Positions 1-7,944 of a stretch of 7,944 nucleotides of DNA are shown here, piece by piece (the first letter of the stretch is position 1; every line of letters begins with the position of its first letter). The notes beneath the pieces are model-generated. The model was not told where the DNA came from, did no database searches, and saw only the letters and a list, made by a program, of their open reading frames with translations. The stretch lies in IMG/VR virus record IMGVR_UViG_2703718859_000024; one strand, written 5' to 3'. A program made the translations under genes and the position numbers. This stretch comes from a virus (lineage: Duplodnaviria > Heunggongvirae > Uroviricota > Caudoviricetes).

Positions 1-40
1 ATGCTGGTTGATGTGGCGCTCTGTGGCGCTCGTTTTGGTG

Positions 41-68
41 TGCTGGTGGCGGGGGTCGAACCCGCATA
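41..68. repeat. Direct repeat copy 1 (28 bp), resembling a tRNA T-arm plus acceptor 3' strand on the minus strand; candidate att core
   Basis: tgctggtggcgggggtcgaacccgcata at 41-68 versus tgctggtggtgggggtcgaacccacata at 146-173, 26 of 28 identical. Minus-strand reading GCGGG-TTCGACC-CCCGC-CACCAGC-A is a perfect 5-bp stem, a 7-nt T-loop of canonical form, and a 7-nt acceptor 3' strand. Confidence 0.6.
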
Positions 69-122
69 CATGATCAGCCTGTACAGGCTGGCACCGACTC
101 TACCCGTTGAGCGTACACCAGC
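41..122 (-). other. tRNA-like cloverleaf (non-canonical; possible tRNA pseudogene or displaced att-associated remnant)
   Basis: Minus-strand 82 nt: GCTGGTG (1-7) pairs perfectly with CACCAGC before the discriminator A. D-arm-like GCTC-AACGGGTA-GAGT has the conserved GG. Perfect T-arm GCGGG/TTCGACC/CCCGC. The central arm is a perfect 16-bp palindrome CAGCCTGTACAGGCTG (plus 75-90) giving a 5-bp stem with only a 6-nt loop. There is one extra nucleotide after position 9, and the 3' end reads CAC rather than CCA. Confidence 0.25.
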
Positions 123-145
123 AAAAAAGCGATGAGGTTGTTGGC

Positions 146-173
146 TGCTGGTGGTGGGGGTCGAACCCACATA
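146..173. repeat. Direct repeat copy 2 (28 bp), a degenerate second copy of the tRNA 3'-end-like sequence
   Basis: Same 28-mer with two substitutions, 105 bp to the right of copy 1. Minus-strand reading GTGGG-TTCGACC-CCCAC-CACCAGC-A. The upstream tRNA-like body is more degenerate than in copy 1. Confidence 0.55.
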
Positions 174-318
174 AACATCCCGCTTTCTGGAAGCTATACA
201 AGCGGGTGCCGCTTTACCGATTAAGAGTACACCATACAGCCAGGCAAAATAGTAATCATGCGTTATGTGCGGGTAAAGTCTGTTTCGTCTGGTAGCACCA
301 GATGAACGGGTATCATTA

Positions 319-394
319 TTTCACCTGATTTCACGTGATTTCGCTTAATTTCACAAAAATCACCTTCTTTCACCTTCTTTCACCTTCTTTCACA
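319..394. repeat. Helically phased array of eight TTTCAC-type 10-bp repeats, including three perfect tandem copies of CACCTTCTTT
   Basis: TCAC/TCGC cores begin at 321, 331, 341, 351, 360, 370, 380 and 390, each exactly 10 bp apart; CACCTTCTTT x3 sits at 361-390. The array is bounded by A runs and lies in non-coding DNA between the tRNA-like repeats and the Mor-like gene. Confidence 0.6.
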
Positions 395-528
395 AAAAAA
401 CAAATCATCATTAAAGCGCCTGATTCGCTCTCTGATGCGTTTTGGTGTTTTGTGGCGTCCGTGATGCCCTGAAAGGGGATTTTTTGCGATAGCGGCGCAA
501 ATATAACGGTTGCTGCTGGTATCTGTGG

Positions 529-936
529 TTAGTCTTGCGTGATTTTATTGGCGTGCTTCTTTCTCAGGCGTCGTATGATGTCGTAAATATGGGTTTCGGA
601 TATTGCGTACTCTTTGCGTAATGTCTGCAATTTTTCGCCGTTATCCCACCTGTAGTAAATCTCGTATTCGCGCAATGCTGCGAAAAGTGATCTGCCTGTT
701 GGAAGGTAAAGACTTCGCCCACCAGCATAGAAGGCGATTGCAGCGACAACCCGCTTTGCGATTCTGAAAGCGTCTGCCTCCTCCATGCCATTACGGGTAA
801 GCTCCGCTACTGAATGCGACACGATATCAGCAAGCGAATCACACCATGCATCACCTGGTTTATCTCCGTTGTCTATGGCGTCGATGAATTTAAGCCGCTC
901 GATGTCTTTTGGTACGTGATGGGTTTGCTCGTTCAT
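529..936 (-). CDS. Mor/C-family transcriptional activator (Mu middle/late operon regulator family)
   Basis: 135-aa ORF, ATG at 936-934 preceded by AAGAGG, stop TAA at 531-529. The C-terminal half (AFYAGGRSLYLPTGRSLFAALREYEIYYRWDNGEKLQTLRKEYAISETHIYDIIRRLRKK) aligns motif for motif with the Mu Mor region as I recall it (...LGGGQVYIPRGQALDSLIRDLRIWNDFNGRNVSELTTRYGVTFNTVYKAIRRMRR): GG, Y-x-P-x-G, NG, and the terminal IRR-x-R HTH. Confidence 0.65.
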   Translation of the reverse strand: MNEQTHHVPKDIERLKFIDAIDNGDKPGDAWCDSLADIVSHSVAELTRNGMEEADAFRIAKRVVAAIAFYAGGRSLYLPTGRSLFAALREYEIYYRWDNGEKLQTLRKEYAISETHIYDIIRRLRKKHANKITQD

Positions 937-1049
937 CCGGTAGCCTCTTGCGTTGGTGTATCTGGTCCTACCAGTTTAATTTAACGTCGCAATAAAACGA
1001 TATACACGCACACAATCAGAAAAACCGTCTGACTGTTCCGGTCCTGTGC

Positions 1050-1322
1050 TTACTTCTGGTAGCTACGCCAGATTTTTTTACATCTCCCTCCTATCCCCAT
1101 TTCTGCGTATGTGCGGTTTACTGCTTTCCTCAGGTCTGCGTAGTTCTCCTCTGGCGGCTCCGGTGGCCTCTGTGCCTTCCCGTAACACTCTGCCCTGCGC
1201 ATTGCCACCCGTTCGCGTTCCCTGTCTGTCTCCACCAGCATCATCACTTCGGCCCATCGCGCCGCCGTTCTCCGGTAAAAGCCTTTCGACTCCAGTTCTT
1301 CCGCTATGCGGTCATGTACCAT
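1050..1322 (-). CDS. Hypothetical protein, about 90 aa (ORF-track entry 1050..1442 trimmed to the internal ATG)
   Basis: ATG at 1322-1320 preceded by GGGGAG about 5 nt upstream, starting 10 nt after the SSB stop (TGA 1335-1333). Stop TAA at 1052-1050. The longer form would overlap the SSB C-terminus by about 110 nt. No family recognised. Confidence 0.45.
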   Translation of the reverse strand: MVHDRIAEELESKGFYRRTAARWAEVMMLVETDRERERVAMRRAECYGKAQRPPEPPEENYADLRKAVNRTYAEMGIGGRCKKIWRSYQK

Positions 1323-1332
1323 CGTTCTCCCC

Positions 1333-1743
1333 TCAGAACGGAATATCATCACCATAAGGGTCATCGCCTCCCGCTGGTGGCTGATTACCCTGTGTGCCTG
1401 TGGTCCTGCGTCTGCTGCCACCTGGTTGCGCCGTTTTCGCACTGATTACGCTGTCTGCAATAACCTGATAACCCTGCCGCGTTTCCCCGTTCTGTCCGGT
1501 CCACTGGCTGACCTGCATCACGCCGGATACGCTGATTACGTTGCCTTTCTCATGGTGTGCCAGTTGGTCGGCCTGTTTGCCAAATGCCAGGACCGACAGC
1601 CATAACGTCGCCTGCCCGTCCTGCGCCTGACTGCATGGCAGTGATACCGCCATACGCGCCAGCGTCATCGGTGTGCCCTTACTGGTCTGTTTTGTCTGCG
1701 GGTCGTCAATCAGTCGCCCGTAAGCTGCTATCTGTGCTGTCAT
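1333..1743 (-). CDS. ssb: Single-stranded DNA-binding protein (SSB) with conserved acidic C-terminal tip
   Basis: 136-aa ORF, ATG at 1743-1741 preceded by GGAGAGGTGG. The N-terminal ~110 aa fit the SSB OB-fold pattern (AYGRLIDDPQ...LWLSVLAFGKQADQLA...KGNVISVSGVMQVSQWTGQNGETRQGYQVIADSV), followed by a Gly/Pro/Gln-rich linker and a terminal DDIPF identical to the bacterial SSB tail. Confidence 0.85.
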   Translation of the reverse strand: MTAQIAAYGRLIDDPQTKQTSKGTPMTLARMAVSLPCSQAQDGQATLWLSVLAFGKQADQLAHHEKGNVISVSGVMQVSQWTGQNGETRQGYQVIADSVISAKTAQPGGSRRRTTGTQGNQPPAGGDDPYGDDIPF

Positions 1744-1981
1744 GATTCCACCTCTCCGGTTTTAACGTTGATGGTTGTTACCTGTTCCGCTTCTGCAATC
1801 TCCCGCTCTGTCAGCGTGGTAAAGTTTGTCGCTGCTGTGCTCATGAATGCACTTATCAGCCAGGGGGCTTTCGCGTGTCTTTCTGCCGTGTTGTGGCCCT
1901 TCGTTCACGAGCAAAACACTTAAATAAAAATAAAGTGATTTTCTGTGTTTTCGTGCTGCTCTGCTCTGTTTTTTTTTGCCG

Positions 1982-2181
1982 TTTACTCACCACTACTCAC
2001 TTTTTTTACTCACTTTTTGGAATCGCTCACTTCGTCTCACCTGAGATTTTTGGTGTTTTTATGTGTATGTTTTATAAGTGGTTTTTTACTGCTCACTTTT
2101 TTGCCTATATACAGGTGAGAAAGTGAGTAATTTTGTTAATTTTTTGTAAAATTACTCACTTTACTCACTTTTGCTCCTCAC
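1982..2181. repeat. Iteron array flanking an A+T-rich stretch: putative replication origin
   Basis: Nine direct copies of the core CTCAC (mostly as TTACTCACTTT) starting at 1986, 1996, 2009, 2026, 2036, 2092, 2155, 2164 and 2177, plus two inverted copies (GTGAG) at 2115 and 2123. Several are about 10 bp apart. They flank a T-rich segment at about 2041-2090, directly downstream of the replication gene stop at 2186. Confidence 0.55.
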
Positions 2182-2185
2182 TTTT

Positions 2186-3583
2186 TTACAGCGGTACTAC
2201 GTCATCGCCGTCAATGCGTATAGTCTCGTCTTTCTCCAGTTTTGCTAACCATCGCCGCATGTTTTTCACGTCATACCCAAGCCGTTTCATGTCGTCGCGC
2301 AACAACGAAATAGTGCACTTGTCGCCGTGCTGTGTGCGTGACCGGATGCACCCCCATAGCGCGGTATGGTTTTCCGTCTTGTTCCCTGCCTCCTCGATGC
2401 GCTCCTGTTCAACGGGAGGACGCGGCTTATCAACCACCACCAGCGACGTAATTAACTCCCCGTCAGCGTCGGTAAAAAGCTCCACCACGCGTAAGTCATA
2501 TGCTGCTTCTTTGAGTTCCTCCGCGTCCTTCATTTTGGTACATGAGATAACCAGCGCTTCGCTGCCTGCGTCCTCCCTGCGTATCCGGTATTCGGCGTCC
2601 AGTGATGCACGAAATGCACTGGAACCGCGCGCGCCTTTCGTCTCATCCTTGCCGGAATGGTGAACCACCAGCACCGTGGCCCCTGTGCGCCGTTTAAGCT
2701 CGTCACACCCACGGATAAACGCCCCCATATCACGGGAATCATTTTCATCATTGCCGCCAAAGCAACGCGCCAGCGTATCCAGAATAATCATGCGTACAGG
2801 TTTACCCGTTTCCCGCTCCACCTGGCGGGCAGCGATAACCATTTCATCAACATCAAGCGGGACAGCCGGAAAGATGGGACGGTTTACCAGATACAGATTT
2901 TTCACCTGCTCACCGTGCACAACCTCCCAGGCTTTTACACGACGCGGAACGCCGATACCTCCTTCACCAACCACATAGAGAACCGCACCATGCGCCACCC
3001 TGCGGCCTCCCCACTGGCGCCCCGTGGAAACGTGACACGCCCACGAACCCGCAAGGAACGATTTATAGGAACCGCTCGCCCCGTATATGCTGCATAGCGA
3101 CGATGCCGGAATAATCCCCTTTACCACGTAATCAAGTTGTGTATCGTATCCGGCAGAACCAACGCTCATCGGTAGCTTTGTTTTGCGCTGGTGGCCTTTT
3201 TCTTCCTGCTTTTCCCCGCGCTCCCGTTCCAGATATTCGCGCCAGTTCTCCCGCTTCTGGCTGTGCATCCCATCGGGGTAATAATTCGCATCCTGTACAC
3301 CTGCCGCTGCCAGCTTGTGCGCAATGGCATTAATATTTGATGGTCTGATATGGCCTGCCTTGTACAGCCGGACGCAATAGCGGCCCTCGTCGATGATTCT
3401 CATGTCTGTCAGTTCTGCCAGTTGCTGCTCCCCAAGCCATACAGGTGGCACATTATCGCCAGCAAGTCGGCCCTCCTGCTCCTGCCACTGCTTCGCGTGT
3501 GCCCAGGCATCACTACCCGCAAAAATAATGACCTCGGTCATTTTGTCGTAAGGCTGTTTTTTTAAGTTCGGTGCGCTTTTCAT
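2186..3583 (-). CDS. Replication protein: primase/helicase-like with RecA-fold (RepA/DnaB-like, AAA_25-type) ATPase domain
   Basis: 465-aa ORF, ATG at 3583-3581, stop TAA at 2188-2186. Deviant Walker A YGASGSYKS, Walker B-like MIILDTLAR, and VLVVHHSGKD (the hhhHHxGK motif typical of RepA/DnaB-type RecA-fold ATPases). An iteron array lies immediately downstream. The C-terminal ~100 aa could be a DNA-binding domain; that is inference. Confidence 0.8.
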   Translation of the reverse strand: MKSAPNLKKQPYDKMTEVIIFAGSDAWAHAKQWQEQEGRLAGDNVPPVWLGEQQLAELTDMRIIDEGRYCVRLYKAGHIRPSNINAIAHKLAAAGVQDANYYPDGMHSQKRENWREYLERERGEKQEEKGHQRKTKLPMSVGSAGYDTQLDYVVKGIIPASSLCSIYGASGSYKSFLAGSWACHVSTGRQWGGRRVAHGAVLYVVGEGGIGVPRRVKAWEVVHGEQVKNLYLVNRPIFPAVPLDVDEMVIAARQVERETGKPVRMIILDTLARCFGGNDENDSRDMGAFIRGCDELKRRTGATVLVVHHSGKDETKGARGSSAFRASLDAEYRIRREDAGSEALVISCTKMKDAEELKEAAYDLRVVELFTDADGELITSLVVVDKPRPPVEQERIEEAGNKTENHTALWGCIRSRTQHGDKCTISLLRDDMKRLGYDVKNMRRWLAKLEKDETIRIDGDDVVPL

Positions 3584-3879
3584 TTCTTGCCCCTGAATGC
3601 GTTAATCATCTTTTTCATCTTCTGTATTTTTGCCAGTGCCTTTACGTTGCTGGTGGGCACGTTACGCGGTACCGCCTGCACCAGAGAAAAATCACGGGAA
3701 AACTGATAAACAGGCATCACGCAATCATATTCGTAGCCTTTACGGCGGTAGGTGACGCACCGCCCCGCCACGCCCTTAATCATTACCGTGCCGCCGTACT
3801 GGTCGCGGTAAATATCACCGCGCTTAAATTCAGGGCGAGGCTTGCCGCTGGCAGTTAAGCCAGTTTTTTTCATGTTCAT
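3580..3879 (-). CDS. Hypothetical protein, 99 aa, translationally coupled to the replication gene
   Basis: ATG at 3879-3877 with AAGGA about 9 nt upstream. Its stop TGA (3582-3580) overlaps the ATG (3583-3581) of the downstream replication gene in an ATGA arrangement. Basic protein, no family recognised. Confidence 0.5.
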   Translation of the reverse strand: MNMKKTGLTASGKPRPEFKRGDIYRDQYGGTVMIKGVAGRCVTYRRKGYEYDCVMPVYQFSRDFSLVQAVPRNVPTSNVKALAKIQKMKKMINAFRGKK

Positions 3880-3952
3880 TTTTTTATCCTTTGTTCTGGT
3901 CAGTTACGCCGTTGCTGCATAAATGCGGTTAGCTGTGACTGTCGTTGCCTTA

Positions 3953-4267
3953 TCACGAATGGCGATAATCAGTACTGATATCTCCGTTACGGCAACGCCA
4001 GTTGTACACCTCCACAACCTCACTGAATCCGGCCACAAGTTCAGCCGTAACAGCGATGGAATCGCCCAGGCTGCGCAGTTCGTCCATGTCAGGATCAATG
4101 CTGTCACTCATGCCAGAAAGTAAGCGCCCTGTGATAGCCAGCCCTTCAAGCAATTTGCGGGCGTAGAAGTCAGCATCATCAAACATCGCTCTCGCTTCCC
4201 GTGCGTCAGCTGCTTTTATGGTTGTAACCAGTTGTTCAAGTATTCTGGTGTTACACACATCACGCAT
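3953..4267 (-). CDS. Hypothetical protein, about 104 aa (ORF-track entry 3953..4297 begins at TTG; the internal ATG is preferred)
   Basis: ATG at 4267-4265 preceded by GGGGGGA and overlapping the stop of the 154-aa gene by 8 nt, the same geometry as the junction between the two paralogs. Stop TGA at 3955-3953. No recognisable motif. Confidence 0.45.
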   Translation of the reverse strand: MRDVCNTRILEQLVTTIKAADAREARAMFDDADFYARKLLEGLAITGRLLSGMSDSIDPDMDELRSLGDSIAVTAELVAGFSEVVEVYNWRCRNGDISTDYRHS

Positions 4268-4724
4268 GACGTCCCCCCTGACGAATACGGGCGACAAAAA
4301 TCAGATGGGTATGCGGAAGTTGTGCGCGGGTTTCGCGTTCTGTTGCTGCCGTGGCGGTAAAGGGTGAGGCTTGTTTTTCATGGCACTGCATAAAGCGCCA
4401 GACAAAGTAAGGGCGTGCGGATACAGCCATGTGAAAGGCTCCTGTAGTGAAATTAAGGAGTCTCGCTACTACGCTGCTAAACATGGTGGCGAGACGTAAC
4501 GGGGTTAGCAGACTGGCACTACAGGAACCAGCGAGCGCAAAGGCTCCCCCGTTACGCCCCGCCATAATGCGGGTATGGGTAGGTTTACGGACGCAAAAAA
4601 ACCGCATATCGGAATGTAAGCGGCTGTCCGCTGTAGTATTCAGGCTGCTAAACCCGGTCGCCATGTGGGCGACTCCGGCATCATACAGCCCGAAAGAAGA
4701 GGCGATCAACATGTTTTTAAGCAT
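4260..4724 (-). CDS. Hypothetical protein, 154 aa; downstream member (A) of the tandem paralog pair
   Basis: ATG at 4724-4722 preceded by GGGGGTGAG and overlapping the 3' end of the upstream paralog by 8 nt; stop TGA at 4262-4260. C-terminus ...FVWRF...TERETRAQ...IFVARIRQGGRHA parallels ...FIWRF...TEREARNR...VFAARIRQGVSHA of the 181-aa protein. Confidence 0.5.
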   Translation of the reverse strand: MLKNMLIASSFGLYDAGVAHMATGFSSLNTTADSRLHSDMRFFCVRKPTHTRIMAGRNGGAFALAGSCSASLLTPLRLATMFSSVVARLLNFTTGAFHMAVSARPYFVWRFMQCHEKQASPFTATAATERETRAQLPHTHLIFVARIRQGGRHA

Positions 4725-5262
4725 GACTCACCCCCTGACGAATACGGGCAGCGAATACAGCGACACAACCGGACGGGCAACGGTTACGCGCTTCGCGTTC
4801 CGTCCAGGCGGTTACGTGGATAATTTGACGTTCTGACGTGCCAAAGGTGATAAAACGCCAGATAAAGGCAGTCTGAGAATGTACGAGGGCTGGGGTAGTA
4901 GCCATGATGGCAGCCTCCTTTATCGTTGGGATATACCCACCGCTGGAGGTTCCAATCTCGCTGGCGGTGGACTGCACGGAGTTGGAACTACTGGCGATAA
5001 AGGAAACCAGCCTGACCGAAGTCAGCCCCATACAGCCCACCATTGATAAGGTGTGCGTGTGCGCCGATACAAAAAAAGACGCGTTCGGCGTCTGTATCGC
5101 CTTTATCTCCAGCGGGGTTCCAATCCCGACACCCGTTTTATAAGGTGCGCGGGAATCATAGCCATTTTTGATACTGGCGATCAACTGATTTTCTCTGGCG
5201 GGTATTTGGCGCGGATGCCTGTTGCCTGTGACAATATGCACACGACTGTATACAATACACAT
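4717..5262 (-). CDS. Hypothetical protein, 181 aa; upstream member (B) of a tandem paralog pair
   Basis: ATG at 5262-5260 preceded by AAGGAG at about 8-nt spacing; stop TAA at 4719-4717. Homologous over its length to the next gene (shared N[MQ]LIAS, YD, FF, THT, WRF, TERE and C-terminal ARIRQG..HA). The corresponding plus-strand ORF is not preserved in the other copy. Confidence 0.5.
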   Translation of the reverse strand: MCIVYSRVHIVTGNRHPRQIPARENQLIASIKNGYDSRAPYKTGVGIGTPLEIKAIQTPNASFFVSAHTHTLSMVGCMGLTSVRLVSFIASSSNSVQSTASEIGTSSGGYIPTIKEAAIMATTPALVHSQTAFIWRFITFGTSERQIIHVTAWTEREARNRCPSGCVAVFAARIRQGVSHA

Positions 5263-5436
5263 CGGTTAACTCCTTATATTACGTTAATGGCCCGTAGTGT
5301 TATTGCATTGCGGGTATTTTTTTACCTGCCGTTAATTGAATGCGGCAAGGCATCACGATGGTTAACCCGTTTTGCATAACGTGAGGCGTTTTATTTTCTG
5401 CGCTGGTGGCTTTTATATGTCACACATGGAAATTTA

Positions 5437-5640
5437 TTATTCCTGCTGATAACGCTCCTCTACTTTCTTCTCAAGCCATGATTTCACCTCATCCTCAAAC
5501 CAGCCAACGCGACGCAATCCACGCTTAAAGCCAGGAATAAACTCACCAGCCTTAACCATTGTGTCAATGCTTGTTGTACTAAGGCGAAGAAGATTTGCGA
5601 CTTCTCGTTTTGTAAGGATTTTCTTTTCTGTGATGTTCAT
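5437..5640 (-). CDS. alpA: AlpA-family phage transcriptional regulator / excisionase-like HTH protein
   Basis: 67-aa ORF, ATG at 5640-5638 preceded by AAGGAAAG RBS, stop TAA at 5439-5437. Sequence ...LLRLSTTSIDTMVKAGEFIPGFKRGLRRVGWFEDEVKSWLE matches the AlpA/Xis-type pattern (HTH then conserved VGW...E...WL). Confidence 0.75.
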   Translation of the reverse strand: MNITEKKILTKREVANLLRLSTTSIDTMVKAGEFIPGFKRGLRRVGWFEDEVKSWLEKKVEERYQQE

Positions 5641-5730
5641 GCTTTGCTTTCCTTTTGTTTCAGGCGATAACTTGCCTAAACTTGCTTAAGGATATGCAAA
5701 CATGGTTAATGTCGGTATTGCGCAATATTA

Positions 5731-5756
5731 CGAAAAAAGCCCGTAATATTACGGGC
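5731..5756 (-). terminator. Rho-independent terminator candidate after the 298-aa gene
   Basis: Perfect 18-bp palindrome GCCCGTAATATTACGGGC at 5739-5756, followed on the minus strand by a run of six T (plus-strand A run 5733-5738). It lies about 20 nt downstream of the stop at 5778. Confidence 0.5.
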
Positions 5757-5777
5757 GGTCATGTGTTCAGAAGTCTG

Positions 5778-6674
5778 TCAGTCGTCAACGTCTGCAAGCC
5801 ACTTACCAACAGATGAAGGGGTTGCGCCAATTTCAACCCCTGCTTTGGTTAGTGCGCGGCTTAACTTGCTGTGACCGTTCTCAAGCGCTCTTCTTGGGTT
5901 TGCTGCCTCTTCTTCTCCGGCTATGGCGGTGATTAGTCTTTTGATAACTCTGGCCTGAAGATTGGTTGTTTTCTTACTCTGCGAATGCGACAAGGCGTGT
6001 TTATCTGAAAAATCCTTTACCATATCTCCTGGTTGTCTGCCGCCGTTCATTACTATTTTTATCTCTTCTTTTGAGATGAAAATGTCACTAATATTTATTG
6101 TTTTGCCATATAAATTTATTGTTATCTTTGGTTCTTTTCCTTTATCTGCTATAACGATGCGTCGCACATAACAATCTGTGACGTCATTTGATAGATTCTC
6201 TATATCAATGCTTGTATTAAATACCTGTAAAAGTCCTGAAGCCACAACCCTGATTTTATGTGGTAACTGTGTTCTGATTTTTCTTTGTTTATATCCATGA
6301 TAGTTGTATATAAAAATATCTGTTTCAGAATAACCGCCACAGCAATTAAAAAATATCTTTTCCGTTAGCTGTTCTTCATCGGTTATTATTTTTTCACCAA
6401 AAGATGAGGATTCAAGTAATTTTAATATGTCGGTTGCTCTGATGAATACGCCTTCATCATTTTCATAATAATAATCTGATGCTGATACACTATTAAATGC
6501 GTTTTTATAATTATGTAATGTCAAAACCTCGTCTATGTGATGACGGTACCAAAAACACATCTTCCCTGTAGCGATGAAGTGAATCAAATCATCAACGTCA
6601 CACCCAAGCCTTCTGGCTGCCTTGTCTAACGGGTAATAATCCCTTTCAGGAAGGTTTATCTTTTTGTTTGTCAT
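5778..6674 (-). CDS. Hypothetical protein, 298 aa, with helix-turn-helix-like N-terminal segment; A+T-rich 5' two-thirds, ordinary-GC 3' end
   Basis: ATG at 6674-6672 lies 4 nt downstream of the integrase stop, on the same strand; stop TGA at 5780-5778. Residues ~13-38 (YYPLDKAARRLGCDVDDLIHFIATGKM) fit an HTH pattern. Hand counts of 60-nt stretches inside 6000-6360 give roughly 25-40% G+C, versus ~50% or more in neighbouring genes. I recognise no family for it. Confidence 0.6.
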   Translation of the reverse strand: MTNKKINLPERDYYPLDKAARRLGCDVDDLIHFIATGKMCFWYRHHIDEVLTLHNYKNAFNSVSASDYYYENDEGVFIRATDILKLLESSSFGEKIITDEEQLTEKIFFNCCGGYSETDIFIYNYHGYKQRKIRTQLPHKIRVVASGLLQVFNTSIDIENLSNDVTDCYVRRIVIADKGKEPKITINLYGKTINISDIFISKEEIKIVMNGGRQPGDMVKDFSDKHALSHSQSKKTTNLQARVIKRLITAIAGEEEAANPRRALENGHSKLSRALTKAGVEIGATPSSVGKWLADVDD

Positions 6675-6678
6675 GCCC

Positions 6679-7944
6679 TTAACCGTTAACCATTTTTAAC
6701 CCACGATAGCCACCTGTGGCGCTTACGCTCCCGCTTGCGGCTGCCTCTACAAAATTCCCCCACCACGCCATTAACGGGCGTCGCTGCTCGAGATAGGTTG
6801 AGCGGTTGTACGCGCGGCGAACCTCGTTTTTGTCTATGTGTGACAATGCCGCCTCGATTACGTCAGAGTCAAAACCTTGCTCGTTAAGTGCGGTACTTGC
6901 TATTGAGCGCAAGCCATGAGCAACCAGCCGCCGACCAAAACCCATGCGTTTTATTGCTGCGTTTGCTGTTTGTGTGCACATAGGGCGCTGCGGGTCGCTG
7001 TTGTGTGGAAATATAAACTCACGATGCCCGCTTATTGGCTTCATGACATCCAGAATGGCTAACGCCTGCTTTGAGAGTGGTATTACGTGTTCCCTGCGTT
7101 GTTTAAGTCTGTGCTCTGGTATGCGCCATTCCTTCGCCTCAAAATCAATCTCACACCAGCGCGCGCCAGCTGCTTCACCTGGTCGGCAAATTGTCAGTAA
7201 CTGCCACTCAATAACCAGCCGCGTTTGTCGTTCCACTCGTGCCGTTGCCAGCTTCTGCATAAAATCGGGGAGTTCTTCAGGGCGTATTGCTGGCATGTTC
7301 TTAGCGCTCGGCGCGTTAAATGCCTTGTTTATCTGTGATGCCGCATTCGCGGTAATCATTCCGGTATTAACGGCGTAATACATGACCTCATTGATTCGCT
7401 GCGCCGTTCTTCTGACGGTATCTAATTTCCCCTGGGCGGCTAATGGTTTTAATGCTTCGATGAAGTTGCTTGCGATCAGGTCTGCTACTGGTCTGTTGCC
7501 GACTGACGGGAATACATTACGCTCCAGCGAGCGCCATGTATCGCGTAGTGTGCCTTCTGCGAGTCCTTGCCCTTTTTTAAGTTCAAACCAAAGCGTAGCT
7601 ACATGCCTGAAGGTGTTCTCTCTCTTCATCACTTCACTAAGGCGCTGTTTCTCTCTGTGCTCTTTTGGGTCAATGCCACCAGAAAGAAGCGCCCTGTATT
7701 CGTCTTTTATCTTTCGCGCGCCCGCAATGCTTATTTCTGGATATGCGCCAATGCTTAACATGGCCCGTTTTTTTGTGTGTGGCTTGTAGTAGCGGTAACG
7801 CCACAAGCAAGAGGCGCTTTTGTGCTTAATCACCAGTTCCAGCCCTTCGCCGTCAGTGATGAAAAGGTCCTTTTTTTCGTTGCTGGCTTTTCGCTGGAGG
7901 CTTTTTATCGCTGCTGGTGATAAGGACTTAGTTTTTTTGGTCAC
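6679..7944 (-). CDS. int: Tyrosine recombinase, P4-family phage integrase; first codon GTG lies on the window edge, so the N-terminus may continue beyond the window
   Basis: 421-aa minus-strand ORF ending in TAA at 6679-6681. C-terminal catalytic region shows box I arginine (ICRPGEAAGARWCEID), box II HGLRSIASTAL...LSH and the tyrosine-bearing RRAYNRSTY. N-terminal region (GEGLELVIKHKSASCLWRYRYY...IGAYPEISIAGARKIKDEY) looks like the arm-binding domain of P4-type integrases. Confidence 0.9.
   Translation of the reverse strand: MTKKTKSLSPAAIKSLQRKASNEKKDLFITDGEGLELVIKHKSASCLWRYRYYKPHTKKRAMLSIGAYPEISIAGARKIKDEYRALLSGGIDPKEHREKQRLSEVMKRENTFRHVATLWFELKKGQGLAEGTLRDTWRSLERNVFPSVGNRPVADLIASNFIEALKPLAAQGKLDTVRRTAQRINEVMYYAVNTGMITANAASQINKAFNAPSAKNMPAIRPEELPDFMQKLATARVERQTRLVIEWQLLTICRPGEAAGARWCEIDFEAKEWRIPEHRLKQRREHVIPLSKQALAILDVMKPISGHREFIFPHNSDPQRPMCTQTANAAIKRMGFGRRLVAHGLRSIASTALNEQGFDSDVIEAALSHIDKNEVRRAYNRSTYLEQRRPLMAWWGNFVEAAASGSVSATGGYRGLKMVNG

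Follow-up and report, generated by a model that had tools for sequence, protein, structure and literature searches.

A PICI-family element of Escherichia coli with a minimal Late zone of probable Mu-like phage origin

Introduction

Phage-inducible chromosomal islands, known as PICIs, are satellites that capture late genes of their helper phages (PMC10111431), and some of them target tRNA-Ile2 (PMC10111431). Their induction requires AlpA, a helper-induced activator (PMC6092414). Several PICIs of Gram-negative bacteria (GN-PICIs) are matched by the C4 and isrK profiles, which detect relatives of P4 CI and seqA (PMC10111431), and the CI/C4 RNA either terminates or represses the operon located downstream of it (PMC10111431). 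The layout of the capsid-forming PICIs (cf-PICIs) has also been published (10.1101/2022.09.08.507074). Here we analyze a 7,944-nt stretch of viral DNA (IMG/VR record IMGVR_UViG_2703718859_000024; hereafter, the window), which holds ~95% of one 8.35-kb element of Escherichia coli. We place this element firmly in the GN-PICI family and propose that it joins a cf-PICI backbone to a minimal Late zone that came from Mu-like phages.

Results and discussion

Relationship to cf-PICIs

Roughly 1800 E. coli genomes match the window only at positions 1086-5192, from the first immunity unit to PerC, at ~85% DNA identity, and islands with the cf-PICI layout are 81–88% identical to the element at the DNA level from PerC to the first C4 unit. 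In the two such islands examined, L005 and L006, which lie at a site between phoQ and roxA, the core has another alpA and int in front of it and is followed by genes for a major capsid protein, HK97 protease, portal, head closure, connector, HNH, TerS and TerL. DNA similarity to the cf-PICIs ends exactly after PerC, where a ~7.5-kb capsid/terminase module is replaced by ~1 kb containing a Mor/C activator, a GTGAAA array and two or three tRNA-like genes. All three of these parts have their closest or only counterparts in Sp18-type Mu-like prophages.

When the element was compared with described GN-PICIs (PMC10111431), the same four zones could be recognized: Integration, Bro/immunity, Replication and Late. 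The first of these comprises int, an orphan cargo ORF and alpA, the second the two tandem immunity units, and the third DUF4222, the RepA-type helicase, the iteron origin and SSB. It has its own integrase at one end, with direct-repeat junctions at the mdtP and ileX insertion sites, an alpA gene downstream of int in the same orientation, and apparently its own replicon, consisting of an AAA_25 helicase, iterons and a single-stranded DNA-binding protein (SSB). A packaging/interference module (terS, rpp, ppi or capsid-size genes) was not found in Pfam, PHROGs or NCBIfam searches, and the capsid, protease, portal, connectors, HNH, TerS and TerL that characterize cf-PICIs occur neither in the element nor in its flanks. 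P4-like features include a P4-type integrase, a Vis/AlpA protein and CI-type RNA immunity; psu, sid, delta and the alpha primase-helicase had no Pfam or PHROG match. The core-gene flanks described below, the ~85% DNA identity to cf-PICIs and the four-zone order uphold the satellite or PICI-like island suggested in a preliminary description made from the sequence alone, and the layout, which that description could not match to a named element, is matchable to the GN-PICI family with a cf-PICI backbone. These comparisons indicate that the element very probably belongs to the PICI family, and we are equally confident that its Late zone derives from Mu-like phages.

Boundaries and insertion sites

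Identity of the window is 99.99% to part of GCA_000937715.2 (L046) and 96.7% to a stretch of the E. coli JNEC-KY203 chromosome. In the near-identical copies the element ends ~210 bp past either window edge. Copies L001 and L046 are ~8.35 kb long and located inside mdtP, the two halves of which sum to exactly the intact gene, with the direct repeat CCGGGATGnnnTTGAACTG at the junction. Splitting by the element presumably inactivates mdtP, which encodes the MdtNOP efflux system's outer-membrane component; in L001, mdtO carries an internal stop too. Other near-identical copies, with a 96% identical integrase variant, adjoin the tRNA-Ile gene ileX between nfeF and mug. The junctions of these copies show that the attP core, which lies ~210 bp outside the window, resembles the ileX 3' end, the site in mdtP being a look-alike. 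A third lineage, with an integrase only 28% identical, is inserted between dinD and yicC. JNEC-KY203 (NZ_AP045179.1) holds two copies, L001 in mdtP and L042 at ileX, suggesting recent integrase activity with a secondary site used when the primary one is occupied.

Flanks consisting of the mdtP halves, or of nfeF and tRNA-Ile/mug, bound the element within ~210 bp of the window edges in L001-L004, L042, L045-L052 and L067. The exact 298-amino-acid (aa) protein encoded beside int occurs in 545 blocks of the assembly collection, with mdtP as the location in all eight places shown, and the host range of the element is E. coli, mostly Shiga toxin-producing strains (STEC). The right boundary is indeed not visible in the window, as stated in the preliminary description, but both ends can be recovered from L046 and L001; the intact tRNA gene that it proposed to look for next to int is present in the ileX-sited copies only, the window's own variant sitting in mdtP.

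Tandem GTATGCCTTTTT repeats occur in the same orientation near both element ends (L001 11858-11883 and 19985-20012), outside the window and ~70-150 bp inside either end; they are likely arm-type integrase binding sites. Otherwise near-identical elements differ in copy number, with two or three immunity units, two or three tRNA-like genes and varying numbers of GTGAAAGAAG array units (Table 1).

The Mor/C activator and the GTGAAA array

The Mor protein is recognized by Pfam PF08765 (3.9e-23; 81.9 bits against a gathering threshold of 24.9). Its best phage match, at 47% aa identity (6e-24 by tblastn against 50,697 phage records; 1e-33 by pairwise BLASTP), is with the only Mor/C gene that Sp18-type Mu-like prophages have, a gene just before those for lysis; Mu C is 31% identical to the window protein. 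An identity of only 47% to the phage version suggests an old, maintained acquisition. The Mor/C gene is the main clue to a putative Mu-like helper.

The phased array consists of ~8 GTGAAA-type units at 10-bp phase, the number of units being variable (L067). When 3190 windows of a 40-kb Mu-like prophage were scanned, the best local match to the array was at the extreme left end (score 32 vs 24), where 19/21 positions are identical to TTTTAGTGAAAGGAGGTGAAA on the inward-reading strand, which is the packaging orientation; motif density likewise peaks there. The left-end block (nt 30-92), GGGTTTTAGTGAAAGGAGGTGAAATCACCTG...CAGGTGAT, is enclosed by TTTGATACC transposase-type repeats and is kept in ~23 Mu-like contigs, with the adjacent sequence occurring in at least five variants. 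In Mu, pac occupies about nt 32-54, in the interval from L1 to L2, a position comparable to that of this conserved block. The array is thus a candidate mimic of the left-end, pac-position block of Mu-like phages.

The motif shared by the array and the left end, (A)AGGAGGTGA / AAGAAGGTGA (window 360-400; L039 left end nt 38-60), is complementary to the anti-Shine-Dalgarno sequence of 16S rRNA, and so a pattern scan also matched ordinary ribosome-binding sites in unrelated phages. Sp18-type Mu-like prophages were themselves found inserted in other prophages, namely an Stx2c phage and a lambdoid tail gene (Table 1). In the IMG/VR contig L080, a Mu-like left end at ~433 lies ~9 kb from PICI-type PerC/RepA homologues at 9657-12191, an arrangement that could reflect either chance insertion or physical association.

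The tRNA-like genes and their counterparts in Mu-like phages

We detected the tRNA-like genes t1 and t2 through PGAP annotation of homologous copies, Rfam and a custom covariance model (CM R1), while ARAGORN reported no tRNA in the window. t1 scores 35 bits with the Rfam tRNA model (gathering threshold 29) and 82 bits with CM R1, and has acceptor, D and T arms with a closed hairpin in place of the anticodon loop. t2 (74 bits with CM R1) also lacks an anticodon loop, has an imperfect acceptor stem, and is a recombinant with its 5' part from t3 and its 3' part from t2; the three-copy arrays of L002 and L067 keep the ancestral order t3-t2-t1. On homologous copies, PGAP calls the two genes tRNA-Tyr and tRNA-OTHER, the latter being t2. 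The direct repeats that had been described as resembling tRNA 3' ends are complete tRNA-like cargo genes rather than remnants of a target tRNA. We rejected the possibility that they are att remnants or attB, as the attP core resembles the 3' end of ileX and not the tRNA-like 3' ends.

t1 is 86% identical to a 'tRNA-OTHER' of Sp18-type Mu-like prophages, present in ~160 E. coli genomes, that is antisense to the late operon and has an F (gp30)-like gene on one side and a G-like gene on the other. t2 is ~81% identical to the F-G-gap RNA allele of the Mu-like prophages L010 and L011, and the additional copy in the three-copy arrays (L002, L067 and L009) corresponds to a third allele (L040). Pattern scans of IMG/VR and CM R1 placed the RNA in the F-G gap of every Mu-like contig found (~45, obtained with three tRNA-like patterns), although some of their F proteins are only 38-54% identical to the reference. 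Pasteurella phage Pmp9 has an F-G-gap RNA too (58 bits with CM R1); in phage Mu, F and G overlap and there is no such RNA. We rejected the idea that the tRNA-like corresponds to the Mu strong gyrase site, which lies between G and I in a phage without an F-G gap. Outside Mu-like phages there were matches only in the element itself and, at lower scores (43-47 bits), in a few large viral contigs that are unrelated; these last matches are possibly genuine tRNAs. A scan of genome contigs with the tRNA-like pattern found a single locus, in Leminorella. The F-G RNA thus spans E. coli, Leminorella and Pasteurella, and its public annotation is 'tRNA-OTHER' or none.

Across the alleles, 94% of cells in the acceptor, D and T stems are paired, and double changes occur in seven pairs; the observed values for paired percentage, double-change pairs or cells, and covariation score were not reached in any of 500 shuffles. 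The U-G pairs lie on the tRNA-sense strand. The RNAs have the acceptor, D and T arms of canonical tRNAs together with the G18G19 and TΨC elements, but in all alleles folded the anticodon arm is predicted to be a closed hairpin without the canonical 7-nt loop, and ARAGORN gave the alleles either no call or no proper anticodon. Most alleles have an outer stem and an inner hypervariable hairpin with a short stem and tetraloop, type 2 having a longer insert. In the Mu-like alleles read, a TAAAAT box lies ~5-12 nt upstream of the RNA 5' end. The combination of conservation, a likely promoter box and a hypervariable tip suggests an expressed RNA that is read by a protein, and the arrays of differing alleles in the satellite suggest a role in specificity or interference. 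Our best guess is that the tRNA-like RNAs form a specificity or interference device operating through a protein that reads the hypervariable tip. Literature searches on tRNA-like RNAs in Mu-like phages or satellites returned nothing relevant, and within the literature searched the F-G RNA seems not to have been described.

Co-occurrence with Mu-like prophages

The module of Mor gene and array is present in 14 of 5426 complete genomes. A Mu-like F-G region was found in at least 10 of these 14 carriers compared with 226 of all 5426 genomes (4.2%; Fisher p = 1e-11), and the co-occurrence would still give p = 3e-4 if the background were 25%. A query combining F, the tRNA-like gene and G matched 231 records, 227 of them with a full Mu-like region, so that at most four carriers are without a Mu-like prophage.

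Backbone genes and RNA immunity

All supported genes in the window lie on the minus strand and read in one direction, as determined from the listing of open reading frames (ORFs) and from Pfam, PHROGs and NCBIfam profile searches, neither of which gave any support to plus-strand ORFs (Table 1). Capsid and terminase genes were absent from the window (profile searches) and from the element flanks (annotated homologous copies), and PADLOC found no match for the orphan ORF or any other window protein. These results bear out the minus-strand content and order of the preliminary description and its lack of structural genes, and they confirm its calls of integrase, replication protein, SSB and Mor; the small gene that it placed between SSB and Mor exists and can now be identified as PerC.

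Table 1 Coordinates of features in the window and in related loci
Record	Feature	Position	Strand	Basis or remark
Window	P4/CP4-57-type tyrosine integrase, 421 aa	6679-7944	-	Pfam, NCBIfam
Window	Orphan ORF, 298 aa	5778-6674	-	ORF call; no family match
Window	Terminator-like hairpin and T-run closing the int-orf298 unit	5739-5756	-	Consensus match only
Window	AlpA-family helix-turn-helix (HTH) protein, 67 aa	5437-5640	-	Pfam Phage_AlpA, HTH_17
Window	Long overlapping ORFs (described earlier as a paralog pair)	4717-5262 and 4260-4724	-	Cover immunity RNAs
Window	RNA-immunity unit 1	4717-5184	-	Rfam, NCBIfam, codon-position test
Window	Unit 1, promoter-like site	5155-5184	-	
Window	Unit 1, isrK/seqA-like leader	5072-5148	-	
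Window	Unit 1, terminator-like hairpin	5077-5093	-	
Window	Unit 1, C4/CI-type antisense RNA	4960-5047	-	
Window	Unit 1, Icd-like ORF, 62 aa	4717-4905	-	
Window	RNA-immunity unit 2, tandem duplicate	4260-4709	-	Rfam, NCBIfam
Window	Unit 2, promoter-like site	4680-4709	-	
Window	Unit 2, isrK-like leader	4595-4673	-	
Window	Unit 2, c4-a1b1 target-type match	4637-4686	-	Overlapping
Window	Unit 2, C4 RNA	4482-4569	-	
Window	Unit 2, Icd-like ORF, 56 aa	4260-4430	-	
Window	ORF, 104 aa	3953-4267	-	Called in all homologous copies
Window	DUF4222 protein, 99 aa	3580-3879	-	Pfam; overlaps helicase start
Window	RepA-type (AAA_25) replicative helicase/initiator, 465 aa	2186-3583	-	Pfam, phrog_2850
Window	Iteron-type origin, AT-rich gap	1980-2186	none	CTCACTT repeats
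Window	SSB, 136 aa	1333-1743	-	Pfam SSB, TIGR00621
Window	PerC-family regulator, 90 aa	1050-1322	-	Pfam PerC
Window	Mor/C-family transcription activator, 135 aa	529-936	-	Pfam Mor
Window	Phased GTGAAA array	311-408	-	~8 units
Window	tRNA-like gene t2	146-240	-	CM R1, PGAP on homologues
Window	tRNA-like gene t1	41-122	-	Rfam tRNA, CM R1
L001	mdtP fragments	11397-11789 and 20136-21209		
L046	mdtP fragments	7452-8546 and 16892-17278		
L004	Copy-number-variable stretch	10249-11351		
L002	Copy-number-variable stretch	5833-6132		
L067	Copy-number-variable stretch	10520-10982		
L009	Swapped replication module	13939-16801		
L067	Swapped replication module	7018-8763		
L008	F-G RNA	11996-12075	-	
L010	F-G RNA	9000-9087		
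L040	F-G RNA	19787-19867		
L041	F-G RNA	10105-10183		
L031	F-G RNA	4243-4323		Many further loci in IMG/VR
L039	Mu-like prophage inside a prophage	35677-75644		LC727881.1
L040	Mu-like prophage inside a prophage	~1815 onward		

The two genes that had been taken for a paralog pair are instead a tandem duplication of a P4/P1-type RNA-immunity unit, as indicated by Rfam and by substitution patterns across codon positions. The C4 model (RF01695; gathering threshold 45) scores 77.6 bits in unit 1 and 73.5 bits in unit 2, and the isrK model (RF01394; threshold 50) scores 61.5 bits, above threshold, in unit 1 and 36.6 bits, below it, in unit 2, where the c4-a1b1 match (32.4 bits) is also below gathering. 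Either unit is preceded by a promoter-like site, TTGATC-18-TATGAT, and the leader of unit 1 is closed by a terminator-like hairpin. The Icd-like ORFs are matched by the NCBIfam family phage_ICD_like (3e-15 in unit 1 and 4e-11 in unit 2). In a comparison of the 181-aa ORF with its cf-PICI homologues, substitutions by codon position number 23/19/19, with 19 indel positions, in the 5' two-thirds and 2/2/10, with no indels, in the 3' Icd-like part, a pattern implying that it is the small Icd-like ORFs that encode conserved proteins. C4 and isrK have already been reported in GN-PICIs, and this feature is therefore known for that family. A third immunity unit is present in L004.

Matches to Pfam Phage_ASH and phrog_29966 overlie the isrK-like and C4 RNA genes along both long ORFs. 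The non-coding substitution pattern suggests that these 'protein families' may largely be translated RNA genes, but the P4 CI region has a real nested eta/kil arrangement (PMC10111431).

In the Replication zone, the helicase matches Pfam AAA_25 (2e-43) and, over its full length, phrog_2850 (4e-253), and it is 94% identical in aa to the cf-PICI homologues in L005 and L006. The neighboring DUF4222 protein (Pfam, 1.8e-23) is 71–79% identical to its cf-PICI homologues; the 104-aa ORF had no family match in Pfam or PHROGs. The origin (GC content 0.41) contains eight direct and two inverted copies of the CTCACTT iteron at 1996-2183 and sits in a block ~88% identical to cf-PICIs. The SSB (Pfam, 1e-15; TIGR00621 above cut-off) ends in an acidic C-terminal tip, DDIPF, and the PerC protein (Pfam, 2.2e-37) is called as 90 aa in every copy. 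Lineages have exchanged the replication module, which consists of the AAA_25 helicase, of Toprim and DUF927, or of D5_N and DUF5906 (Table 1). Despite this swap the Mor, array and tRNA-like zone is kept in place, and parts of the backbone are kept beside it: DUF4222, SSB and PerC in L067, and a frameshifted PerC with an SSB fragment in L009.

At the other end of the element, the integrase has the Pfam domains Arm-DNA-bind_3, Phage_int_M and Phage_integrase and scores 525 bits with PRK09692 (NCBIfam). AlpA is recognized by Pfam Phage_AlpA (7.5e-5, above cut-off), HTH_17 and phrog_66 (4.7e-12), and by analogy is expected to be the PICI activator/excisionase. Between int and alpA, a variable slot of low GC content (31–37%) holds the 298-aa ORF, which gave zero matches in Pfam, PHROGs, PADLOC and NCBIfam and has 11 relatives only, in E. 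coli and Salmonella. Its AlphaFold model is mediocre (pLDDT 65), and Foldseek found nothing in the PDB with E < 0.1; the predicted structure has an N-terminal HTH-like segment, a beta-rich middle and a helical C-terminus. In sister elements the slot contains a 52%-identical variant (L003/L004) or an unrelated 317-aa ORF (L009), which makes the 298-aa protein a candidate for accessory or defence cargo.

Proposed mobilization and alternative explanations

Our best overall explanation, for and against which the scales stand about level, is that the element is a minimal PICI exploiting Mu-like phages, and we lean slightly towards a Mu-like phage as its helper. Induction of, or infection by, such a helper would switch on alpA, as in other GN-PICIs, and transcription from alpA would outrun the block that the C4/CI RNA places on the leftward operon. 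The element would then excise and replicate from its iterons into concatemers; from the orientation of the array, packaging in situ would leave the element body, so that excision and replication would be required. The C-like activator may cross-talk with the C-dependent late promoters of the helper, like P4 Delta and P2 Ogr, and the helper's headful machinery of the Mu type (PMC5557969) would take the GTGAAA array as a pac site, with ~4-5 tandem copies filling one helper capsid, as described for the minimalist chromosomal islands inducible by phages (PICMIs). The tRNA-like RNAs would be structured and expressed RNAs copied from the helper. A pac function of the array is conceivable, although we rate it as somewhat less than probable. 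More doubtful still is the fuller proposal that this would be the first satellite in E. coli to specialise on transposable (Mu-like) phages, one that has no packaging protein and relies on a late-activator copy, an amplified pac mimic and an allelic helper-RNA array, the RNA being an L-shaped tRNA mimic, conserved in F-G gaps from Enterobacteriaceae to Pasteurellaceae, that would set helper-satellite specificity or interference.

Several observations weigh against exploitation of a Mu-like helper. No protein for capsid-size control or terminase redirection was found in the element, so that packaging would rest wholly on the putative cis site. The match between the array and the left end is short (19/21) and was noticed before being tested, and the array motif is strongly Shine-Dalgarno-like, occurring elsewhere for unrelated reasons. 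A search for common C-boxes, made with k-mers shared by the element and the late-promoter regions of the helper (those upstream of lys and the protease gene), yielded nothing convincing, and a scan for sigma-70-type promoters found 6 compared with 8.7 expected from shuffles, which is not above chance and makes the promoter assignments weak. The co-occurrence figure is inflated by STEC ancestry and near-clonal carriers. Further, 2 to 4 of the 14 carriers have no Mu-like prophage (STEC17-183 and JNEC-KY179 confirmed), the type 3 tRNA-like allele of the resident Mu-like prophage in strain 48 matches neither copy of the resident element, and cf-PICI relatives sharing the core are mobilised by the lambdoid helpers HK106 and HK446 (10.1101/2022.09.08.507074). 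These last three points would suit a PICI-type satellite with a lambdoid or other non-Mu helper, for which the Mu-derived Late zone would be accessory cargo rather than packaging equipment and might counter Mu-like phages, through mistimed late activation or RNA mimicry, or reprogramme host genes via PerC/Mor. PICI accessory genes are often at element ends, PICI PerC homologues act on locus of enterocyte effacement (LEE) genes of the host, and several allelic tRNA-likes would serve interference or immunity as well as hijacking. Against such a helper stand the lack of detected terS, rpp, ppi or cos-like similarity to cf-PICIs or any other packaging module, the agreement of three Late-zone parts, including a cis block from the Mu pac position, in indicating one phage type, and the strong co-occurrence with Mu-like prophages; we consider it unlikely, while giving it appreciable weight.

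The 81–88% DNA identity from immunity to PerC, and a length of 8.3 kb that is nearer the capacity of a small cf-PICI capsid than that of the Mu head, are also what might be seen in a hyper-satellite of cf-PICIs, co-induced with them and packaged into their capsids. We rank this explanation low, as an improbable one, because no similarity to the cf-PICI cos/packaging region or cos-bearing segment was found in the element; moreover, its alpA and int are unlike those of the cf-PICIs examined, and the three Mu-derived parts would go unexplained. Just as improbable is a decaying, non-transmissible cf-PICI remnant, in which the capsid module was deleted and Mu-like DNA gained by chance recombination. 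The clearly cf-PICI-related backbone without its packaging module and the recombinant window t2 with its imperfect acceptor stem fit such decay, but the ORFs are all intact across copies, the Late zone persists over three integrases/sites and three replication modules, one genome has two copies at different sites, the variant is found in hundreds of assemblies, and the 47%-identical Mor points to an old acquisition that has been maintained. An ordinary prophage end with structural genes beyond the window would account for an integrase and phage-type regulators and nothing more; its probability is practically nil, since core genes (mdtP halves or nfeF and tRNA-Ile/mug) flank the element at its insertion sites in the homologous copies and no capsid or terminase gene lies outside it.

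Implications and comparison with known satellites

If the link of our minimal PICI to Mu-like phages is true, it would extend satellite parasitism in E. coli to transposable phages and add a third hijacking route, an activator homologue with a pac mimic, beside capsid remodelling and self-made capsids. Surveys of the SatelliteFinder type define PICIs and cf-PICIs partly by packaging genes and would miss such a PICI or rank it as degraded, although the element is intact, multi-copy and found in hundreds of assemblies of E. coli, including many from STEC. A further outcome is a tRNA-like RNA gene of Mu-like phages that is deeply conserved yet unannotated. In pathogenic lineages the element carries a PerC-family regulator and presumably inactivates mdtP.

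Among described satellites, the element shares with cf-PICIs (prototype EcCIEDL933) the unidirectional backbone, the immunity-to-PerC core and alpA after int, but it is without the capsid-to-TerL genes, occupies ileX or mdtP instead of phoQ-roxA, and has another integrase and another alpA allele. GN-PICIs of the EcCICFT073 type resemble it in zone order, inward int, alpA, C4/isrK matches and an apparently helper-captured Late zone. They are ~10-20 kb long compared with 8.35 kb, whereas the element lacks Rpp, TerS and a capsid-morphogenesis gene and its Late zone consists only of a transcription activator, a repeat array and RNA genes. With P4 it has in common a P4-type integrase, an AlpA/Vis homologue, CI/C4 immunity with a seqA/isrK-like leader and nested small ORF, and a homologue of the helper's late activator (Delta vs Ogr in P4; Mor/C here); unlike P4, it has an AAA_25 helicase as its replication protein and a putative helper that is transposable and Mu-like, not P2. 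The PICMIs of Vibrionaceae (PMC10803314) are similar in their reduced gene set without capsid-remodelling genes, concatemer packaging being only predicted here, but there is no sequence relationship, and they differ in using a fis site and virulent helpers (PMC10803314), compared with ileX/mdtP and a different replicon. A precedent for a PICI exploiting a Mu-family myovirus is provided by PmCI172/PmCI86 of Pasteurella multocida (PMC6092414), although PmCI172, unlike the element, encodes a capsid homologue and makes small capsids (PMC6092414).

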